NCBI GenBank assembly: GCA_964538505.1 | Contig: CAZIDY010000010.1 | Span: 10,004-74,003, forward strand | Direction of reading: 5' to 3' | Origin: an uncultured Limnobacter sp. | GTDB lineage: Bacteria > Pseudomonadota > Gammaproteobacteria > Burkholderiales > Burkholderiaceae_E | Length of the DNA: 64,000 nucleotides | Shown: piece by piece, positions 1 to 62,004 of the stretch | How the letters are laid out: each line of letters opens with the position of its first letter | How positions within the stretch are numbered: position 1 is the stretch's first letter | Notes under the pieces: model-generated | The model's input: only the letters and a program-made list of their open reading frames with translations | Told to the model about the DNA's origin: nothing | Database searches by the model: none | Program-made: the position numbers and the translations under genes

Positions 1-768
1 CCGTCACCGGCAGGCCCTCGGCTTTCGCACGACGCACGAGCTCGACACCGGCCGCCGACGAGAGCCGGCACAGGTGCACCCGGCAACCCGTATCGCGCAC
101 GAGATCGAGAATCGTATGGACCGCGATCGTTTCGGCAACGACCGGGATGCCCGACAGGCCGAGCCGCGCAGCGACTACACCCGCGTGCGCAACACCACCG
201 CGTGCGAGATGCGGATCCTGTGGCTGCACCCAGACGGTGTAGCCGAAGGTGTTCGCATACTGCATCGCCCGCTGCAGCACCTGCGTGTCGAGCACCGGCG
301 CGAGCGCCTGCGAGAAACCGACGCAACCGGCTTCGGCGAGCTGCGCCATCTCGGTGATCACCTCGCCGGCCAGGCGAATCGTGAGCGCGCCGAGCGGATA
401 CAGATGCGCGAGGTCGAGACCGCGCGCGCGGTGCTTGAGCATCTCGACGAGTCCGGGCTCGTCGAGCGGCGGGTCGGTGTCCGGGGGGCACGACAGCGAC
501 GTGATGCCGCCGGCGACCGCTGCGTGCATCTCCGATTCGAGCGTCGCGCGATACTCGAAGCCGGGCTCGCGCAGACGTGCAGCGAGATCGACGAGCCCGG
601 GCGCGACGACGAGGCCGCGTGCATCGACTGTGCGATCGGCGCGGAAGCCGTCGGGCGCAGGGCCGATGCCGACGATGCGTCCGTCGGCAACATGCACGTC
701 GGCGACGCGATCGAGCCCGGAGGCCGGGTCGATCACGCGCCCGTGGACGATCGACAGACGGCCGGCAT
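1..768 (-). CDS. pyrC: dihydroorotase-like protein, N-terminal part only (gene runs off the left edge); probably the non-catalytic PyrC' type
   Basis: My translation of the minus strand from ATG at 768: [37 protein letters not shown]...APGLVDLAARLREPGFEYRATLESE..., a DHOase/amidohydrolase pattern. The usual D-x-H-x-H metal motif reads DLAAR. The start abuts the pyrB stop at 769. It is absent from the ORF track because there is no stop in the window. Confidence 0.85.
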
Positions 769-22619: not shown

Positions 22620-23410
22620 AACGTTATTGCCGCGCGCGGAACGTGCTCAGATGAGCGGAGCCACCTCTCCTCTCCAGATCCACATCGACCACGGTCCGGT
22701 AGCCGTCCTGCACGTACTGCCGTGCACGGAGCACTGCGTCATGCGCACGGCGTCCCGGCGGAAGCCGTAGCTGTGATCGGAGAAGATCGGATCGATCGAC
22801 AGGCCATCCACCCCGGCACCGCCGCGATTGGCTTTGACGCGTTCCCACGCCACCACCAGATTCGCTCTCGCGAGCGCCTGCGTAAGCAGGCTGCCCCGCC
22901 CCGAGCCTTCGGCTCCGTCCCGCGCCATCGGTGCTTCGTCGCGCATCGCTTGCGCTCGGGCTTCACCTCACGCTGCACGCTGCGCCCCGGTTGCCCGGGC
23001 TTCTGACGCCTTGCACTTCCAAGCGACACGGTCGTTCGGCTCTTCCACTCGTTCGGCCCTTCGCCCCATACCGGCGGCTATTACGACCTCTGCTGACTTC
23101 TCGCTCCGGGTCATCCCCGTCGGCCTTTCAGCCGCAAGGCGAGATCTCCCCAGGTAAGAACGCACTCCTTCGCTGCACAGCCGCCGGATCTACGCCGTCT
23201 CGCCTTGATCACGAGAGCTTCGCGGTTTCTGGCCCGCTCGCCCTGCTCAGCAACGCGTTGTATCCGGTTCTTGTCCATCGGCTCGCAGCTTATGGTCCGC
23301 GCTTCCTTCCCACGCTCGGTCGCCCTCACGCAGTTGCGCTTCGCTTCGTTCGCTGTGATCAACTTACGACGGGACTTGCACCCGCAGGAATGCGCCCGTG
23401 CCGGGTGCAC
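22620..23410 (-). mobile_element. 5' fragment of a group II intron (ribozyme domains plus a truncated, frameshifted reverse transcriptase/maturase)
   Basis: The minus strand begins GTGCACCCGGCACGGGCGCA at 23410. ORF 22647..22946 encodes LLTQALARANLVVAWERVKANRGGAGVDGLSID...SYGFR, an intron-encoded RT N-terminus. The next RT block (RRAHDAVLRARQYVQDGYRTVVDVDLE) sits in another frame (ORF 22624..22848) and then ends. Confidence 0.7.
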
Positions 23411-56068: not shown

Positions 56069-56461
56069 TCAGCGCTTCGAGAACTGCTTGCGCCGACGCG
56101 CCCCGTGCAGGCCGACCTTCTTGCGCTCGACTTCGCGCGCGTCGCGCGTGACGAGCCCGGCGCTCGACAGCGTCGGCTTGAGCGACTCGTCGTAGTCGAT
56201 CAGGGCGCGCGTGATGCCGTGGCGAACCGCGCCCGCCTGGCCGGATTCGCCGCCGCCGTGCACGTTGACCATGACGTCGAAGGATTCGAGATTCTGCGTG
56301 AGATCGAGCGGCTGGCGCACGATCATGCGGCCCGTTTCGCGCGCGAAGTAGTCGTCGAGCGGCTTGCCGTTGACGACCATCTTGCCGGTGCCCCGCTTCA
56401 GGAACACGCGAGCGACGGAAGTCTTGCGCCGGCCGGTGCCGTAGTAGTAGTCGCCGATCAT
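56069..56461 (-). CDS. rpsI: 30S ribosomal protein S9
   Basis: [16 protein letters not shown]...GGG.SGQAGA.RHGI.RAL...RDAR.VERKK.G..KARR..QFSKR. Confidence 0.97.
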
Positions 56462-56465
56462 CGGA

Positions 56466-56894
56466 TCAGACCTCCAGAGCCTTCGGCTGCTGCGCCGTGT
56501 GCGGGTGCGTGGCTTCGCCGTACACCTTGAGCTTCTTGATCATCGCGTAGCCGAGCGGGCCCTTCGGCAGCATGCCCTTCACCGCCTTCTCGAGCGCGCG
56601 GCCCGGGTGGCGCGACTGCATCTGGCGGAAGGTCTGCTGGCGGATGCCGCCCGGATAGCCGGTGTGACGGTAATAGATCTTGTCGTCGGCCTTGGTGCCG
56701 GTGACCTTGATGCGTGACGCATTCACGACGACGATGAAGTCGCCGGTGTCGACGTGCGGCGTGAACTCGGGCTTGTGCTTGCCCCGCAGGCGACGCGCGA
56801 TCTCGGCAGCGAGACGCCCCAGCACCTTGTCGGTGGCGTCTACGACGAACCAGTCGCGCTGAACCTCTTGCGGCTTGGCGGAAAAGGTCTTCAT
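56466..56894 (-). CDS. rplM: 50S ribosomal protein L13
   Basis: [20 protein letters not shown]...KVLGRLA..IA..LRGKHK..FTPH.D.GD. Confidence 0.97.
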
Positions 56895-56983: not shown

Positions 56984-57012
56984 ATTGTAATGCGGCGGGC
57001 CCTTTGCGTCAA
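56984..57012 (-). promoter_or_regulatory. sigma70-type promoter candidate for rplM-rpsI
   Basis: Minus strand TTGACG-17 nt-TACAAT, about 90 nt upstream of the rplM ATG. Confidence 0.5.
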
Positions 57013-57080
57013 AGCGGCGCCGCCCCACTTGTCGCGCCCCCGGCCGTGTAGGCTGGGCCACGCCTGTTCCGAACCCACGG

Positions 57081-57335
57081 ATGAACATGAACGAGCCCCG
57101 CGATGGCCGTGCCGTCGTGAACCTCCACGAGGCGAAGACGCATCTGTCGAAGCTGCTCGACCGCGTACAGGCCGGCGAGGAGATCATCCTCGCCAGGGCC
57201 GGCGTGCCGTGCGCGCGCCTCGCACCGCTGGAGTCTGCCCGCTCGTCCCGCAGGCCCGGCCGGCTGCAGGGCAGGCTCGACGATGCCTTCTTCGAACCGC
57301 TCGACGCAGACGAGTCGCGCGGCTGGAGCGGATGA
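57081..57335 (+). CDS. Phd/YefM-family antitoxin
   Basis: VNLHEAKTHLSKLLDRVQAGEEIILARAGVPCARLAPL is a typical Phd/YefM N-terminal domain. 84 aa. Confidence 0.8.
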   Translation: MNMNEPRDGRAVVNLHEAKTHLSKLLDRVQAGEEIILARAGVPCARLAPLESARSSRRPGRLQGRLDDAFFEPLDADESRGWSG

Positions 57336-57338
57336 GCC

Positions 57339-57725
57339 GTGCAGGTGCTGCTCGACACGCACGTGCTGCTCTGGTGGCTGACAGACGACGAGCGCCTGTC
57401 TCACGCGGTTCGACGCGTCATCGCCGAACCCGCCAACGAGATCCTCGTCAGTGCAGCCAGCGCGTGGGAGCTGTCGACGAAGTACCGCCTCGGCAGGCTT
57501 CGCGGCTGCGAGGAGATCGTAGTGCGCTACACGGAGATCATCGAAGCCGAGCATTTCCGGACGCTTGCCATCGAGCCACGTCATGCGCTGCTGGCCGGCA
57601 CCTACGCCACCCGCCACCGGGATCCCTTCGACCGCATGCTCGCCGCACAAAGCGAGCTCGAGTCGCTGCCGCTCGCCACCGACGACGAAGCCTTTCGATC
57701 CTTTCCCTGCCGAACGCTGTGGTGA
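57339..57725 (+). CDS. vapC: PIN-domain toxin (VapC family)
   Basis: (M)QVLLDTHVLLWWL...SAASAWEL...HRDPFDRMLAAQS. Begins 3 nt after the antitoxin stop. Confidence 0.85.
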   Translation: MQVLLDTHVLLWWLTDDERLSHAVRRVIAEPANEILVSAASAWELSTKYRLGRLRGCEEIVVRYTEIIEAEHFRTLAIEPRHALLAGTYATRHRDPFDRMLAAQSELESLPLATDDEAFRSFPCRTLW

Positions 57726-57787
57726 AAAAAAAACCCGGACGCGAGGCCCGGGTTGAATCCACCAAGGAGGAGGAGGTGGAGGAGACA
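57726..57787 (-). ncRNA. candidate small RNA with a CU-rich (anti-Shine-Dalgarno) hairpin loop and an intrinsic terminator
   Basis: Minus strand: TTGCAC-17 nt-TATAGT (57821..57793), then about 60 nt reading gucuccuCCACCuccuccuccuuGGUGGauucaaCCCGGgccucgcguCCGGGuuuuuuuuu. No credible CDS on this strand. Confidence 0.5.
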
Positions 57788-58085
57788 GATGAACTATAGC
57801 GGAAGCGATGTTGCAGTGCAAGAGGCGCGATTCGGGCGTTGCAAAAGGGCTACGGACGGGCGGTCAACAAGCTGTAAATAGTTGATATTGCTAATTGTGA
57901 TGACCGGAAGTGCCTCTCGAAACCGTGCGGAGTGCACGCGTCGAAGTAGCCCCGACAGGGCGCTCCTTCCCGCACTGCAGCACGGAGGGGACGCACTTGT
58001 TCCGAAGCCCGCGTCACCTGGCGTGATGTCGCGGACGCGTACACATCAGAACCAGCGAGAATTGCCGCCTCGACAGGAGTATTCG

Positions 58086-58508
58086 ATGCAGTGCACGGTG
58101 AAATGGACCGGGCCCGGTGGCATGAGCTTTCTCGCCGAATCGGGCAGCGGGCACGCGGTGGTGATGGACGGCGCGCTCGAGGCCGGCGGGCGCAATCTCG
58201 GCCCCCGGCCGATGGAGATGCTGCTGATCGGCACCGGCGGATGCACCGCATCCGACGTGGTCGTGATCCTCAGCCGCAGCGGCCAGGACGTGCGCGGCTG
58301 CGAAGTGCAGCTGAGCGCCGACCGGGCACCCACCGACCCGAAGGTCTTCACGCGCATCCACTTCCATTTCGTCGTGCGCGGACGCGGGCTCAAGCCCAAC
58401 GTCGTCGAGCGCGCGATCCGACTGTCGCACGAGAAGTACTGCTCAGCGTCGATCATGATGGGGCAGACGGCCGAGCTGACGCACGACTGGGAGATCGTCG
58501 AAGACTGA
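58086..58508 (+). CDS. OsmC family peroxiredoxin-like protein
   Basis: MQCTVKW...RPMEMLLIGTGGCTASDVV...SHEKYCSAS has the two conserved Cys motifs. Confidence 0.85.
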   Translation: MQCTVKWTGPGGMSFLAESGSGHAVVMDGALEAGGRNLGPRPMEMLLIGTGGCTASDVVVILSRSGQDVRGCEVQLSADRAPTDPKVFTRIHFHFVVRGRGLKPNVVERAIRLSHEKYCSASIMMGQTAELTHDWEIVED

Positions 58509-58545: not shown

Positions 58546-58619
58546 GAGACTACAAAATGCGGCGTTCTCGTTCGTGGAATCGATTCCACGAACGAGAACG
58601 CGCGAAATTGAGGTTCGAA
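58546..58619. repeat. palindromic REP-like element, copy D
   Basis: gagactacaaaatgcg-gcgttctcgttcgtggaatc|gattccacgaacgagaacgc-gcgaaattgaggttcgaa. Perfect 20+20 core. Lies between the convergent osmC and coq7. Confidence 0.75.
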
Positions 58620-58646: not shown

Positions 58647-59315
58647 CTACAGATAGTGCGCCGTCGTCGTCATCACTTTGGAGGCCGCGCGCATCGCCCA
58701 GCGCGCCGGAGCCGGCAGGTCGACGCCGCCCAGTCGTCTTGCGTGCTCGCCGTGCCGCGCTTCGTCTTCCTGCATCGCCGCCACGATCGCGCGTGAACGC
58801 GAGTCGGCAGGCGGCAGCCGGTCGAGATGCCGTGCCAGGTGCGATTCGACCTGGCGTTCGGTCTCGGCCATGAAACCCAGGCTGATGCGATCGCCCATGC
58901 GTCCCGCGACCAGCCCGATTGCGAACGAGCCGGCGTACCAGCACGGATTCAGCAGGGAAGGACGCGCCCCGAGCTCGCGCAAGCGTTCGCGCGTCCAGGC
59001 GAGGTGATCGCCCTCCTCGCGCGCCGCCGCCCGAAACTCGCCCTCGAGAACGGGATCGGCCGTGCTGGCCGCCTGCGCCTCGTAGAGCGCCTGTGCACAG
59101 ACCTCACCAACGTGGTTCACCCGCATCAGTGCGCCCGAGAGCCGACGCTGCGAAGGCTCGCTCGGCTCGTCGTCGTCGAAGGCGTCGTTGCGGACCGGCA
59201 TCGGCCGCGAGGTAGGCGCGGCTCCTGCGAGCGATGCGAAGGCGCGCCCGAATCCGGACAACATCCGGTCGAGCGGCGTCGGATCGCGCAGCTCATCGGT
59301 GGAGATCGTGGACAT
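58647..59315 (-). CDS. coq7: demethoxyubiquinone hydroxylase (Coq7 family di-iron monooxygenase)
   Basis: Internal start [28 protein letters not shown]...EEGDHLAW...[13 protein letters not shown]...EDEARHG carries the E..H di-iron motifs. Confidence 0.88.
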
Positions 59316-59495: not shown

Positions 59496-60545
59496 TTGAA
59501 AAGAACACTGGTAACGCTGGCCGTCCTCGGCGCCTTCGGCGGCGCCGCTTCCGCGCAGACGAACATCACCTTGTACGGGATCGCCGACGCCGGCTTCGGA
59601 ATCGCCGACACCGACACGCCCGGATCGGACAGCACGACGATGGTCTACACCAGCGTCCAGTCGAGCAGCCGCTTCGGCATCCGCGGCAGCGAGGACATCG
59701 GTTCCGGGCTGAAGGTGACCTTCAACCTCGAGAGCGGCGTCGACATCGACGACGGCGAGGCCGGCGATCCGTTCTGGGCGCGTCGCGCGGTGGTCGGCCT
59801 GGCAGGAGGCTTCGGCGAAGTGCGGCTCGGCCGCGATTACACGCCCGGCTATTCGGCGATCGGAACCACCGACGTGATGGGCCTCGGCCTGTTCGGCAAC
59901 TGGCTGAACTTCGGCGGCAACGGCGGAATCACCAGCCGCAAGAGCAATGGCGTGCACTTCACGAGCCCGGTCTGGTCCGGCTTCACGTTGCGTGCGATGT
60001 ACGCGACCGGCGAAGCCGACGACGTGAGCCGGCCGTCCGGCGACGGCGACATGTACGGCGTCTCCGGCGTCTATGCGAGCGGCCCGTTGACCGTGCAGGC
60101 ATATTTCCAGTCGAGCGAAAGCGCCAATGCGGCAGGAAACAACACAGTCGACCGCGACGAGTACGGAATCGGCGGCCAGTACCGGTTCGGCGCCTTCCGT
60201 GTCGCGTTGAACTACGGGAAGGTCGACCGGGAGCTCCCGGCCGGCGGCGACGTCGAGCACGACGCGATCGGGCTTGGCCTGGGCGCGAAGATCGGCACCG
60301 GCGAACTGCTCTTCAACTACATCCAGCAGGAACTCGACAGCGCCGGCAAGCCGGAGGCGAAATCCTTCGGCATTGCATACGTCTACCCGCTCTCGAAGCG
60401 CACGAACCTGTACGCGACCTACGGTCAGTTGAAGAACGACGATGGGGCGGACTTCGCCCTGCGTGCGGCCGGGTTCGGCGTCGGCGGCGGCGTTGCGAAC
60501 ACCGAGCCGAAGGCCTTCGCGCTGGGCATCCGGCACCGCTTCTGA
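59496..60545 (+). CDS. Gram-negative general porin (Omp32/OpcP-like)
   Basis: TTG start after AGGGAG. (M)[32 protein letters not shown]...[16 protein letters not shown]...[14 protein letters not shown]...LGIRHRF with a terminal Phe. Confidence 0.88.
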
Positions 60546-60559
60546 GCAGCGAGCGCTCG

Positions 60560-60600
60560 ATCCGGGTAAGCCCGGATTTGCGGGCCGGCGCGCCGGCCCG
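60560..60600 (+). terminator. tandem GC-rich hairpins after the first porin gene
   Basis: atccggg-taag-cccggat-ttt, followed by the palindrome cgggccggcgcgccggcccg. Confidence 0.55.
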
Positions 60601-60844
60601 CCCTCCACGCGCTTCCGTCCAATTTCTTGCGGCAGACATGCTGCGCGGGAACAACGGCCTGTGTTGCCGGAATACGACAGAAATCGGCCGTAGAGGCATC
60701 GGAAGGCGCCCGATTCTTTGCTCACCTAGGGAATTTCGCGAGAATACGTTGGACTTCAAACCGGGGATAGCCTGTCGGCCTCTCGGGGAGTTGCGGCGGC
60801 ACACCACGCCGACGATTGATTCCAGAAACCTAGGAGAACCTTCA

Positions 60845-61963
60845 ATGAAGAAAACGCTTCTCGCAGTGGCTGTCGCCGCAGCGCTGCCGGCCGTTGCGTT
60901 CGCACAGACGAACGTGACGCTGTACGGGATCGCCGACGCGGGCGTGGGCTGGCAAGACAACGACGTCGACGGGCAAGACGGTTCGTTGGTTGTGAATTCG
61001 GGCTACAACTCGACCAGCCGCTTCGGAATTCGCGGCACCGAAGACCTGGGCAGCGGCCTGAAGGCCACGTTCAACCTCGAAGGGGGCGTTCAATTCGACA
61101 CCGGTCGGAGCGACGCCGACATTCCTAGCCGCGCCGCGTTCTGGAATCGCCGCGCGGTCGTCGGTCTGGCCGGCGGCTTCGGCGAAGTACGGTTCGGCCG
61201 TGACTACACGCCCGCCTTCTCGTCGGCCGGGTCGACCGATATCATGGGCTACGGCCTGTTGGGCAACTGGCTGACCTTCACGGTTCAAGGCGGTATCGAG
61301 ACCCGTGCAAACAACGGGGTCCACTACACGGGTACTTTTTCGGGCATCACCATCCGCGCCGTGTATGCCGACGGCGAACAGCCGAAAACCCGCGTGGGCG
61401 GCATAGAAACCGTCGACGGGGCAAGCGGTGATATCTGGGGTCTGTCGGCTGCCTGGGCAGGCGGTCCTCTCACGGTCCAAGGCTACTATCAGGAAGTCAA
61501 CACCAGAGCATCCACTACAGCCCCCATTACCTCGGGAGGCGACTCCGTCAAGCAGATGGGCGTCGGCGCCGGCTACAACTTCGGCGCGTTCCGTCTTGCG
61601 CTGAACTACGGAATTGCAGATGCGGACAACGGCACGACCGTTACCGCGATGCGGGGCGACAAGTTCCAGGGCCTCGGCCTCGGCGCTGGCGTCAAGCTCG
61701 GTACCGGCGAGTTGCTGGCGCAGATCATGCAGTTCAAGGTCGACAACGCCGCAAACGGGCTAAGAGACCCGAAAGCCACGGGCTTCGGTCTCGCCTACAT
61801 CCATCCGCTGTCGAAACGTACCAATCTGTACGCCACGTACGGCATGATGCGCAACAACAGCAATGCATCCTTCGCTGTTCTCGCCTCGGACGTCTCGGTA
61901 GGCAGCGGTGCACTGGGTTCGGATCCGCAGGGCTTCGCGGTCGGTATCCGTCACCTGTTCTGA
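60845..61963 (+). CDS. Gram-negative general porin, second tandem paralog
   Basis: [33 protein letters not shown]...SRFGIRGTEDLGSGLK...[14 protein letters not shown]...VGIRHLF. Confidence 0.9.
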   Translation: MKKTLLAVAVAAALPAVAFAQTNVTLYGIADAGVGWQDNDVDGQDGSLVVNSGYNSTSRFGIRGTEDLGSGLKATFNLEGGVQFDTGRSDADIPSRAAFWNRRAVVGLAGGFGEVRFGRDYTPAFSSAGSTDIMGYGLLGNWLTFTVQGGIETRANNGVHYTGTFSGITIRAVYADGEQPKTRVGGIETVDGASGDIWGLSAAWAGGPLTVQGYYQEVNTRASTTAPITSGGDSVKQMGVGAGYNFGAFRLALNYGIADADNGTTVTAMRGDKFQGLGLGAGVKLGTGELLAQIMQFKVDNAANGLRDPKATGFGLAYIHPLSKRTNLYATYGMMRNNSNASFAVLASDVSVGSGALGSDPQGFAVGIRHLF

Positions 61964-62004
61964 TCGCGCGCCGGCTTTCGCCGGCATGCGAAGCAGGCCT
62001 GAAA

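Follow-up and report, generated by a model that had tools for sequence, protein, structure and literature searches.

The window analysed here is a stretch of 64,000 nucleotides (64 kb) from a contig of an uncultured Limnobacter sp. (CAZIDY010000010.1), and our subject is a short intergenic element on its minus strand, the gene of a small RNA (sRNA) of about 62-63 nt at 57725..57787. The gene order around it is rplM-rpsI (minus strand), the sRNA (minus strand), osmC (plus strand) and coq7 (minus strand), and a phd-vapC module lies directly beside the sRNA gene. When the whole window was scanned with the covariance models of Rfam 15 (cmscan) at gathering thresholds, a single sRNA match was returned. 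RF02278 (Betaproteobacteria_toxic_sRNA) matched 57725..57787 on the minus strand with 65.7 bits, above its gathering score of 50 bits, and the alignment covers all 64 positions of the model (1-64). The E-value of 5e-11 was computed over the whole 64 kb, which places the match beyond chance. A resemblance to a betaproteobacterial 'toxic small RNA', which the initial annotation had pointed out, is thus borne out over the full length of the model. No other RF02278 match in the window reached the gathering score, and further occurrences of the seed there (one mismatch or fewer) were not sRNA-like. In Burkholderia the members of this family also go by the name 'double-hairpin RNA', those of B. cenocepacia being ncS03, ncS05, ncS27 and ncS62, and their overexpression is reported to inhibit growth (cloning toxicity in E. 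coli, growth attenuation in B. cenocepacia). The founding paper of the family is reportedly that of Kimelman et al. 2012.

The RNA-like segment, UGUCUCCUCCACCUCCUCCUCCUUGGUGGAUUCAACCCGGGCCUCGCGUCCGGGUUUUUUUUU, spans 57787..57725 and starts 5 nt past the -10 hexamer of the promoter described below. Its minimum free energy (MFE) fold reached -24 kcal/mol; 200 shuffled sequences averaged -13.8 kcal/mol and none was as stable (0/200, z = -4.3). The fold consists of a 7-nt single-stranded 5' end, hairpin 1, a 3-nt linker, and a 9-bp GC-rich stem with a 5-nt loop followed by U9. This is the consensus structure of RF02278, with two stem positions of the 8-bp model helix left unpaired in the window copy. 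The unpaired 5' end, UGUCUCC, occupies 57781..57787; extended by the three bases that follow, it gives UGUCUCCUCC, a CU-rich seed complementary to GGAGGAGACA and equivalent to 'Site 1' of S17S, the short form of the Bordetella pertussis sRNA S17. Hairpin 1 (57758..57780) was delimited from the MFE fold and the RF02278 alignment. It closes with a 6-bp stem, UCCACC/GGUGGA, around an 11-nt anti-Shine-Dalgarno loop at 57774..57764, UCCUCCUCCUU, which contains three UCC repeats and corresponds to 'Site 2'. Both UGUCUCC(UCC) and the loop are single-stranded CU-rich regions in the fold, and such unpaired regions have been described as a feature of the family (PMC5688073).

The second hairpin is a Rho-independent terminator with a U-tail, as judged from both the fold and a terminator scan, so that the two-hairpin architecture of RF02278 is complete. 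Its 9-bp stem, AACCCGGGC/GUCCGGGUU, and 5-nt loop lie at 57754..57732 and the U-run extends to 57725. The run comprises nine uridines (57733..57725), two of them paired within the terminator stem. Read on the plus strand it is the A-run 57725..57733, whose first A closes the vapC stop codon TGA (57723..57725). The 6-bp hairpin, the 11-nt loop, the GC-rich hairpin and a U-run shared with the A-run at the vapC stop had all been described beforehand, and each was found where it had been placed.

For comparison, homologues were collected by scanning species-representative genomes for the pattern TGTCTCCTCCACC-N4-16-GGTGGATT. This yielded at least 120 loci (L059-L178), nearly all of them labelled Burkholderiales or Betaproteobacteria; counts out of 120 below refer to the loci listed and counts out of 121 to these loci plus the window copy. 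Representative loci were rescanned with Rfam, and all proved to be RF02278 members with 51-76 bits. They included Bordetella-type (L113, L136) and Burkholderia-type copies (L154, L161), the nearest relatives of the window copy (L177, L116), and paralogues from Ralstonia and Cupriavidus. The Bordetella-type, Burkholderia-type and nearest-relative copies scored 67-76 bits, with L154 and L161 at 74-75 bits. The 5' end of the window RNA is the same as in the Bordetella-type and Burkholderia-type homologues, and the seed shared with Burkholderia is UGUCUCCUCCACC. A loop identical to UCCUCCUCCUU occurred in none of the 120 listed loci, where the commonest loop was CUCCUCCUUU. A hairpin of -8 kcal/mol or better followed by a T-run was present in 116/121 homologues. 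These 116 copies contain 111 distinct hairpin sequences, as one would expect if the terminator function is what is conserved.

Several other families share the general design. Neisseria NmsR/RcoF, Rhodobacter SorX and Burkholderia anti-hemB likewise combine CU-rich unpaired regions that pair with ribosome-binding sites (RBSs) with a terminator hairpin. However, the window RNA scored below the gathering thresholds of the corresponding models, with 32.8 bits for anti-hemB (threshold 49.5), 30.6 for SorX (46.6) and 16.5 for NmsRb (52); SorY was likewise below threshold. The window RNA is therefore a functional analogue of the anti-hemB, SorX and NmsRb RNAs and not a member of their families. It is a new orthologue within a curated sRNA family, and neither a toxin-antitoxin (TA) component nor a new class of RNA.

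Upstream of the sRNA on the minus strand we found a -35 hexamer TTGCAC (57821..57816) separated by 17 nt from a -10 hexamer TATAGT (57793..57798). Alignment of the regions upstream of the homologues gives a family promoter, T-n-TTGC(A/G)-n-(C/T)GCA-n-C-A followed by 10 nt and TAnnnT, and the window sequence TTGCACTGCAACA-N10-TATAGT conforms to this consensus of motif-N10-TAnnnT. The family-specific motif TTGCACTGCAACA, with the dyad TGCACTGCA, lies at 57809..57821 and is the sole strict match in the window. In its relaxed form the motif stands upstream of 94-95/120 listed sRNAs, non-syntenic paralogues included, against an expectation of 0.026 per 160 nt. Strict matches number 116 across the 120 loci; 107 of them are no more than 300 nt away from the 5' end of an sRNA, and 9 are elsewhere. 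At its centre is a conserved 9-bp dyad core, TGC-R-N-Y-GCA, which overlaps the -35 element and the spacer and was found from Alcaligenaceae to Comamonadaceae. Because this core is a dyad, matches on the opposite strand are the same site read backwards.

The same promoter type, with a TTGCAN -35 element, the dyad TGCRNYGCA and 17-nt spacing, has an experimental counterpart. The mapped B. pertussis promoter PS17 combines a -35 element TTGCAT with a 17-bp spacer, and its start site lies 7 bp past the -10 element; sigma-A RNA polymerase suffices for its activity, and the authors of that work postulate a repressor (PMC11722255). By homology to PS17 the window promoter is credible, and transcription would start at G57786 or U57787, 7 or 6 nt past the -10 hexamer. 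The dyad may represent an operator for the repressor postulated at PS17.

The chromosomal position of the sRNA was compared by tblastn of the proteins flanking the window copy against the 120 listed loci. The main anchor is the osmC-like gene (58086..58508, plus strand; Pfam OsmC, E 1.5e-16), which diverges from the sRNA; an OsmC homologue was upstream and divergent in 97/120 loci (median distance, 202 nt). The second is coq7, encoding demethoxyubiquinone hydroxylase (58647..59315, minus strand; identified by its translation and Pfam COQ7, E 1.1e-40), with Coq7 upstream on the same strand as the sRNA in 68/120 loci. On the other side lies the rplM-rpsI operon, called from its open reading frames (ORFs) at 56069..56894 on the minus strand, and RplM was encoded downstream on the sRNA strand in 33/120 loci with a median gap of 235 nt. 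In B. pertussis, S17 adjoins coq7 (BP3152) (PMC11722255). The window copy thus lies beside osmC-like, coq7 and rplM-rpsI genes in the position of NcS27 and S17, and the shared gene order identifies it as the syntenic core copy and not a scattered paralogue. Fifteen listed loci lacked synteny, including L082 and L105 from Ralstonia and L063, L115, L165 and L176 from Cupriavidus. The closest of the loci listed was L177, a Burkholderiales-labelled metagenome-assembled genome (MAG), whose RplM, RpsI, OsmC and Coq7 counterparts are 65-85% identical to those of the window. Together with the labels of the homologous loci, this protein identity points to a betaproteobacterial host of the order Burkholderiales, as is usual for RF02278. 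When the window was aligned by BLASTN with L116, the sRNA was the sole alignable island from rplM to osmC.

A location upstream of rplM on the same strand in 33 of the 120 loci, with 235 nt as the median distance, is also what would be seen if the element were a cis-acting leader or attenuator of the rplM-rpsI operon instead of a trans-acting RNA. In the window, however, the element and rplM are separated by 830 nt and by the phd-vapC module in opposite orientation, and there is a promoter-like site for rplM itself at 57012..56984. Moreover, most loci with osmC-coq7 synteny have no rplM within the fetched locus, non-syntenic paralogues of the sRNA exist, and action in trans has been demonstrated experimentally in relatives (PMC11722255). 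We therefore consider a role as an operon leader highly improbable.

The phd-vapC module fills the interval from the rplM promoter to the sRNA terminator. It consists of phd (57081..57335, plus strand; Pfam PhdYeFM_antitox, E 1.8e-9) and vapC (57339..57725, plus strand; Pfam PIN, E 6.8e-19), a type II TA module that converges on the sRNA, with the vapC stop codon overlapping the last U of the U-run. The distance from the 3' end of the sRNA to rplM is about 830 nt in the window, compared with the median of 235 nt. Neither a Phd nor a VapC homologue was found in any of the 120 listed loci. The module is a lineage-specific insertion outside the sRNA system, with no detectable link to the sRNA. 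The initial annotation had presented the sRNA as the neighbour of phd-vapC; the adjacency is real but, since it is absent from all 120 other listed loci, incidental.

The contact between the terminator hairpin and the vapC stop codon raises the question of whether the element is only a terminator of vapC, or a bidirectional one, accompanied by a chance CU-rich sequence and with no independent RNA gene. The orientation argues otherwise, as the U-run belongs to the minus strand and the hairpin read on the plus strand is followed just by TTGAAT. In addition, all 63 nt match a curated covariance model, and the element recurs with its promoter in 120 listed loci that have no vapBC. Such a terminator without an RNA gene is accordingly very hard to reconcile with the data. 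The same convergent arrangement, with zero spacing and no plus-strand terminator found from vapC to osmC, could instead give the sRNA an additional role that would be compatible with its trans action: a perfectly complementary antisense RNA produced by read-through from phd-vapC might sponge the sRNA or be cleaved together with it, coupling the TA module to the sRNA. Among the loci listed, however, the adjacency is confined to the lineage of the window, and therefore a coupling of sRNA and vapBC is not a conserved design. We judge it unlikely.

On the plus strand, the complement of the sRNA 5' region reads as a strong Shine-Dalgarno (SD)-like run, AAGGAGGAGGAGGTGGAGGAG, followed 4 nt downstream by an ATG at 57789 that opens a 30-codon ORF (57789..57881). 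Both had been pointed out before and are indeed present. They had also prompted the alternative that the ORF encodes a small toxin and the minus-strand RNA is a cis-antisense antitoxin covering its SD and start codon, which would make the locus a type I TA-like pair. As in those systems, which pair a small hydrophobic toxin with an antisense RNA, a small ORF with a strong SD overlaps the antisense sRNA, and by construction the sRNA is perfectly complementary to that SD. In contrast to a type I toxin, however, this ORF is not conserved, and the sRNA is conserved without it. Among the listed homologues 45/121 have no start codon 3-12 nt past the SD-like core, and ATG is found in only 20. ORF lengths are scattered and the homologue peptides, that of L177 included, show no evident similarity. 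A tblastn search with the 30-aa peptide found nothing in the 120 listed loci. The G+C content at third codon positions (GC3) is 0.55, compared with 0.81-0.92 for the genes around it. Hydrophilic and charged, the peptide (MNYSGSDVAVQEARFGRCKRATDGRSTSCK) has neither a membrane helix nor a Pfam match. The SD-like run is merely the complement of two conserved anti-SD seeds. We judge the ORF to be non-coding, and the type I interpretation is abandoned as extremely improbable.

It had further been stated that no plausible coding sequence exists on the minus strand. Mechanically a 270-aa ORF (57009..57821, minus strand) does cover the region, so the statement holds with a qualification: the ORF is an antisense shadow of phd-vapC, has no Pfam match and has a GC3 of 0.67, which is untypical here. 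We rejected it as a gene.

The features that the window RNA shares with RF02278 and the B. cenocepacia double-hairpin RNAs are the two hairpins, the CU-rich unpaired 5' end and loop, the intrinsic terminator and the betaproteobacterial host; the model differs in having a shorter CU loop than the 11-nt UCCUCCUCCUU with its three UCC repeats. With NcS27, a 92-nt RNA reported to yield a short form by processing (Sass et al. 2017, 2019), it shares the type of locus, as judged from the syntenic Burkholderia loci L154 and L161. These lie between rplM-rpsI and an osmC-like gene and have a leader length that fits the 92 nt of NcS27. In contrast to the window copy, with its 5 nt, these syntenic copies from Burkholderia have their -10 element separated from the seed by a leader hairpin of about 30 nt. 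In length the window RNA is instead like the short paralogues ncS03, ncS05 and ncS62. The likeness to S17/S17S of B. pertussis (Sim et al. 2024 preprint, PMC11722255) extends to the location beside coq7, an identical Site 1, a terminator with a long U-run, a TTGCAN-type -35 element with 17-nt spacer, and membership of the Bordetella-type copies in RF02278. Unlike the window copy, S17 is made as a 190-nt precursor that is cut by RNase E, and its Bordetella-type Site 2 loop is CUCCUCCUUU and not UCCUCCUCCUU. S17 also has a 32-aa ORF on the same strand, which the window copy lacks because it has no leader, and Bvg regulation is a feature of S17.

The absence of a leader sets the window copy apart from most others at this locus. 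Most syntenic orthologues have about 30-125 nt between the -10 element and UGUCUCC, often with a hairpin, and the nearest listed relatives have 32 nt (L177) and 60 nt (L116). The only leaderless syntenic copies among the loci listed were that of the window and two from Caballeronia (L074, L149); the arrangement is otherwise typical of paralogues. The longer, processed primary transcript of NcS27 and S17 should accordingly have no equivalent here. A second deviation concerns the 27 nt at positions 2-28 of S17S that are reported as identical across Betaproteobacteria: the window copy agrees with them through GUCUCCUCCACC and in the stem GGUGG but differs in the loop. Many other syntenic copies also deviate in the loop.

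What such an RNA may do is indicated by its relatives. In B. cenocepacia, family members are expressed, as seen from mapped start sites and Northern blots (PMC5688073; PMC4603805). Overexpression of NcS27 slows growth, an antisense RNA to its CU-rich region speeds growth, and most of its predicted interactions cover RBS regions (PMC5688073). NcS27 also has effects on the use of amino acids and carbohydrates, and its role is seen as one of balancing the shutdown of metabolism when nutrients are lacking (PMC10987360). In B. pertussis, RNase E removes the S17 leader, which leaves the abundant 67-nt S17S; this short form co-precipitates with Hfq. In an S17 deletion mutant, 70 of the 92 derepressed genes have sites complementary to Site 1 or Site 2 at or near the RBS, and repression of BP2158 by S17S via Site 1 was proved with compensatory mutations (PMC11722255).

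By analogy with these relatives, we infer that the window sRNA would be expressed, would depend on Hfq and would act by occluding RBSs in a physiological role like theirs. The sigma-70-type family promoter TTGCACTGCAACA-N10-TATAGT would drive its synthesis from G57786 or U57787 to the intrinsic terminator ending in U9. Because the leader is missing, the active short form should be made directly, without processing by RNase E. Hfq would bind through the U-tail. Activity would reside in the two CU-rich single-stranded regions, the 5' end UGUCUCCUCC and the loop UCCUCCUCCUU with its (UCC)3, which are predicted to pair with the purine-rich SD regions of many mRNAs; targets in relatives are mostly transporters, catabolic genes and regulators. 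Such pairing would occlude ribosome binding and lower expression, so that metabolism would be damped under nutrient limitation.

With family membership, structure, terminator, promoter conservation and synteny all observed, we conclude that 57725..57787 on the minus strand is very probably the gene of an Hfq-type trans-acting RF02278 sRNA of about 62 nt, the syntenic orthologue of NcS27 and S17. The core of the initial annotation, a trans-acting sRNA with CU-rich anti-SD regions, its own promoter and an intrinsic terminator, holds, as covariance model, synteny and conserved promoter agree on it. Several observations nevertheless weigh on the other side. The transcript and its start site are predictions from sequence here. 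The promoter, which had been called a good sigma-70-type one, is present as TTGCAC, 17 nt and TATAGT and carries the family motif, but its -35 hexamer agrees with TTGACA at only 3/6 positions, and for this reason a generic sigma-70 scan does not list it. The Site 2 loop has 11 nt with three UCC repeats, compared with 10 nt within the '100% conserved' 27 nt of S17S. The phd-vapC module converges on the sRNA gene with no evident plus-strand terminator before it, and interference is possible. Finally, target searches by complementarity scan and RNAduplex, confined to the 64-kb window and its crude gene calls, gave nothing convincing and were uninformative at this scope. Contiguous stretches of at least 8 nt complementary to the first 30 nt of the sRNA were either strong-SD-like, such as GGAGGAGG before ribH (41169, minus strand), or intragenic, and RNAduplex, run on every in-frame start, returned mostly long, imperfect GC duplexes located at internal GTG codons.

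Copies resembling the sRNA were also seen on about 12 predicted viral contigs of IMG/VR. Those on L009, L012, L021, L026, L034 and L036 looked genuine, as did those on L040, L042, L044, L045, L049 and L056; they show seed, hairpin, terminator and U-run, and two exceed the RF02278 cut-off (L036, 56.4 bits; L012, 50.9 bits). The synteny genes for OsmC, Coq7 and RplM were not found on these contigs, and PHROGs and Pfam scans of the neighbouring ORFs in L036 and L042 returned an IS1595 transposase only. The sRNA of L036 has a tRNA gene some 270 nt upstream of it, with an int-alpA RNA and the IS1595 transposase close by, and because of these neighbours the copy may sit at an integration site or in a host flank. 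L012 carries a second sRNA-like unit (200..335, plus strand; TGTCTCCTCCCATCC...GGGAATTT, GC hairpin and T-run) 8 nt past the first terminator, a tandem pair that recalls the tandem NmsR arrangement of Neisseria. A BLASTN search with the sRNA and its promoter gave no match among INPHARED phages and PLSDB plasmids, where the low-complexity filter probably masks the CU run.

Further observations concern the surroundings of the locus. L170 (JBLMWT010000194.1), although binned as a Sphingomonadaceae MAG, has the whole Burkholderiales-type rplM-rpsI/sRNA/osmC/coq7 locus and is probably a binning error, not an alphaproteobacterial occurrence. The RNase P RNA gene is a further marker of local synteny in Burkholderia and Caballeronia, where it is found about 1 kb away from the syntenic sRNA in the direction of osmC (L074 4505..4918, L154 5325..5736, L161 1944..2355); this marker is absent near the window sRNA. 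Seven Logan metagenome contigs were 100% identical to the window across the sRNA region, and therefore population variation is not visible. Several Logan contigs end, with the repeat folded back, at a perfect inverted repeat between the convergent osmC and coq7 genes (58567..58600), which is probably a bidirectional terminator. Beyond coq7, at 59500..62000 on the plus strand, two long ORFs have C-terminal parts that resemble general porins of the Gram-negative trimeric type; transporters and porins are regulated by relatives of the window sRNA and by other sRNAs of Burkholderia. Elsewhere in the window, matches to RF02001 (D1D4-3, 100.1 bits) and RF01998 (D1D4-1, 41.4 bits) at 23056..23329 on the minus strand mark the domains of a mobile group II intron.

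These results settle the annotation of the intergenic element beside phd-vapC as a Burkholderiales core sRNA of the NcS27/S17 type, and they give this sRNA one conserved chromosomal position, osmC / coq7 / rplM-rpsI, across Burkholderiales. Tentatively, one may combine the peculiarities of the locus: the dyad could be the operator of a Burkholderiales-wide repressor, the leaderless copy could bypass RNase E and yield a 5'-triphosphate sRNA, and vapBC might add a lineage-specific layer of antisense control. We regard this combination as conceivable though doubtful. Natural leaderless versions at the syntenic locus bear on the need for RNase E processing and for a 5'-monophosphate end, and the promoter dyad offers a concrete candidate binding site for the repressor postulated at PS17.

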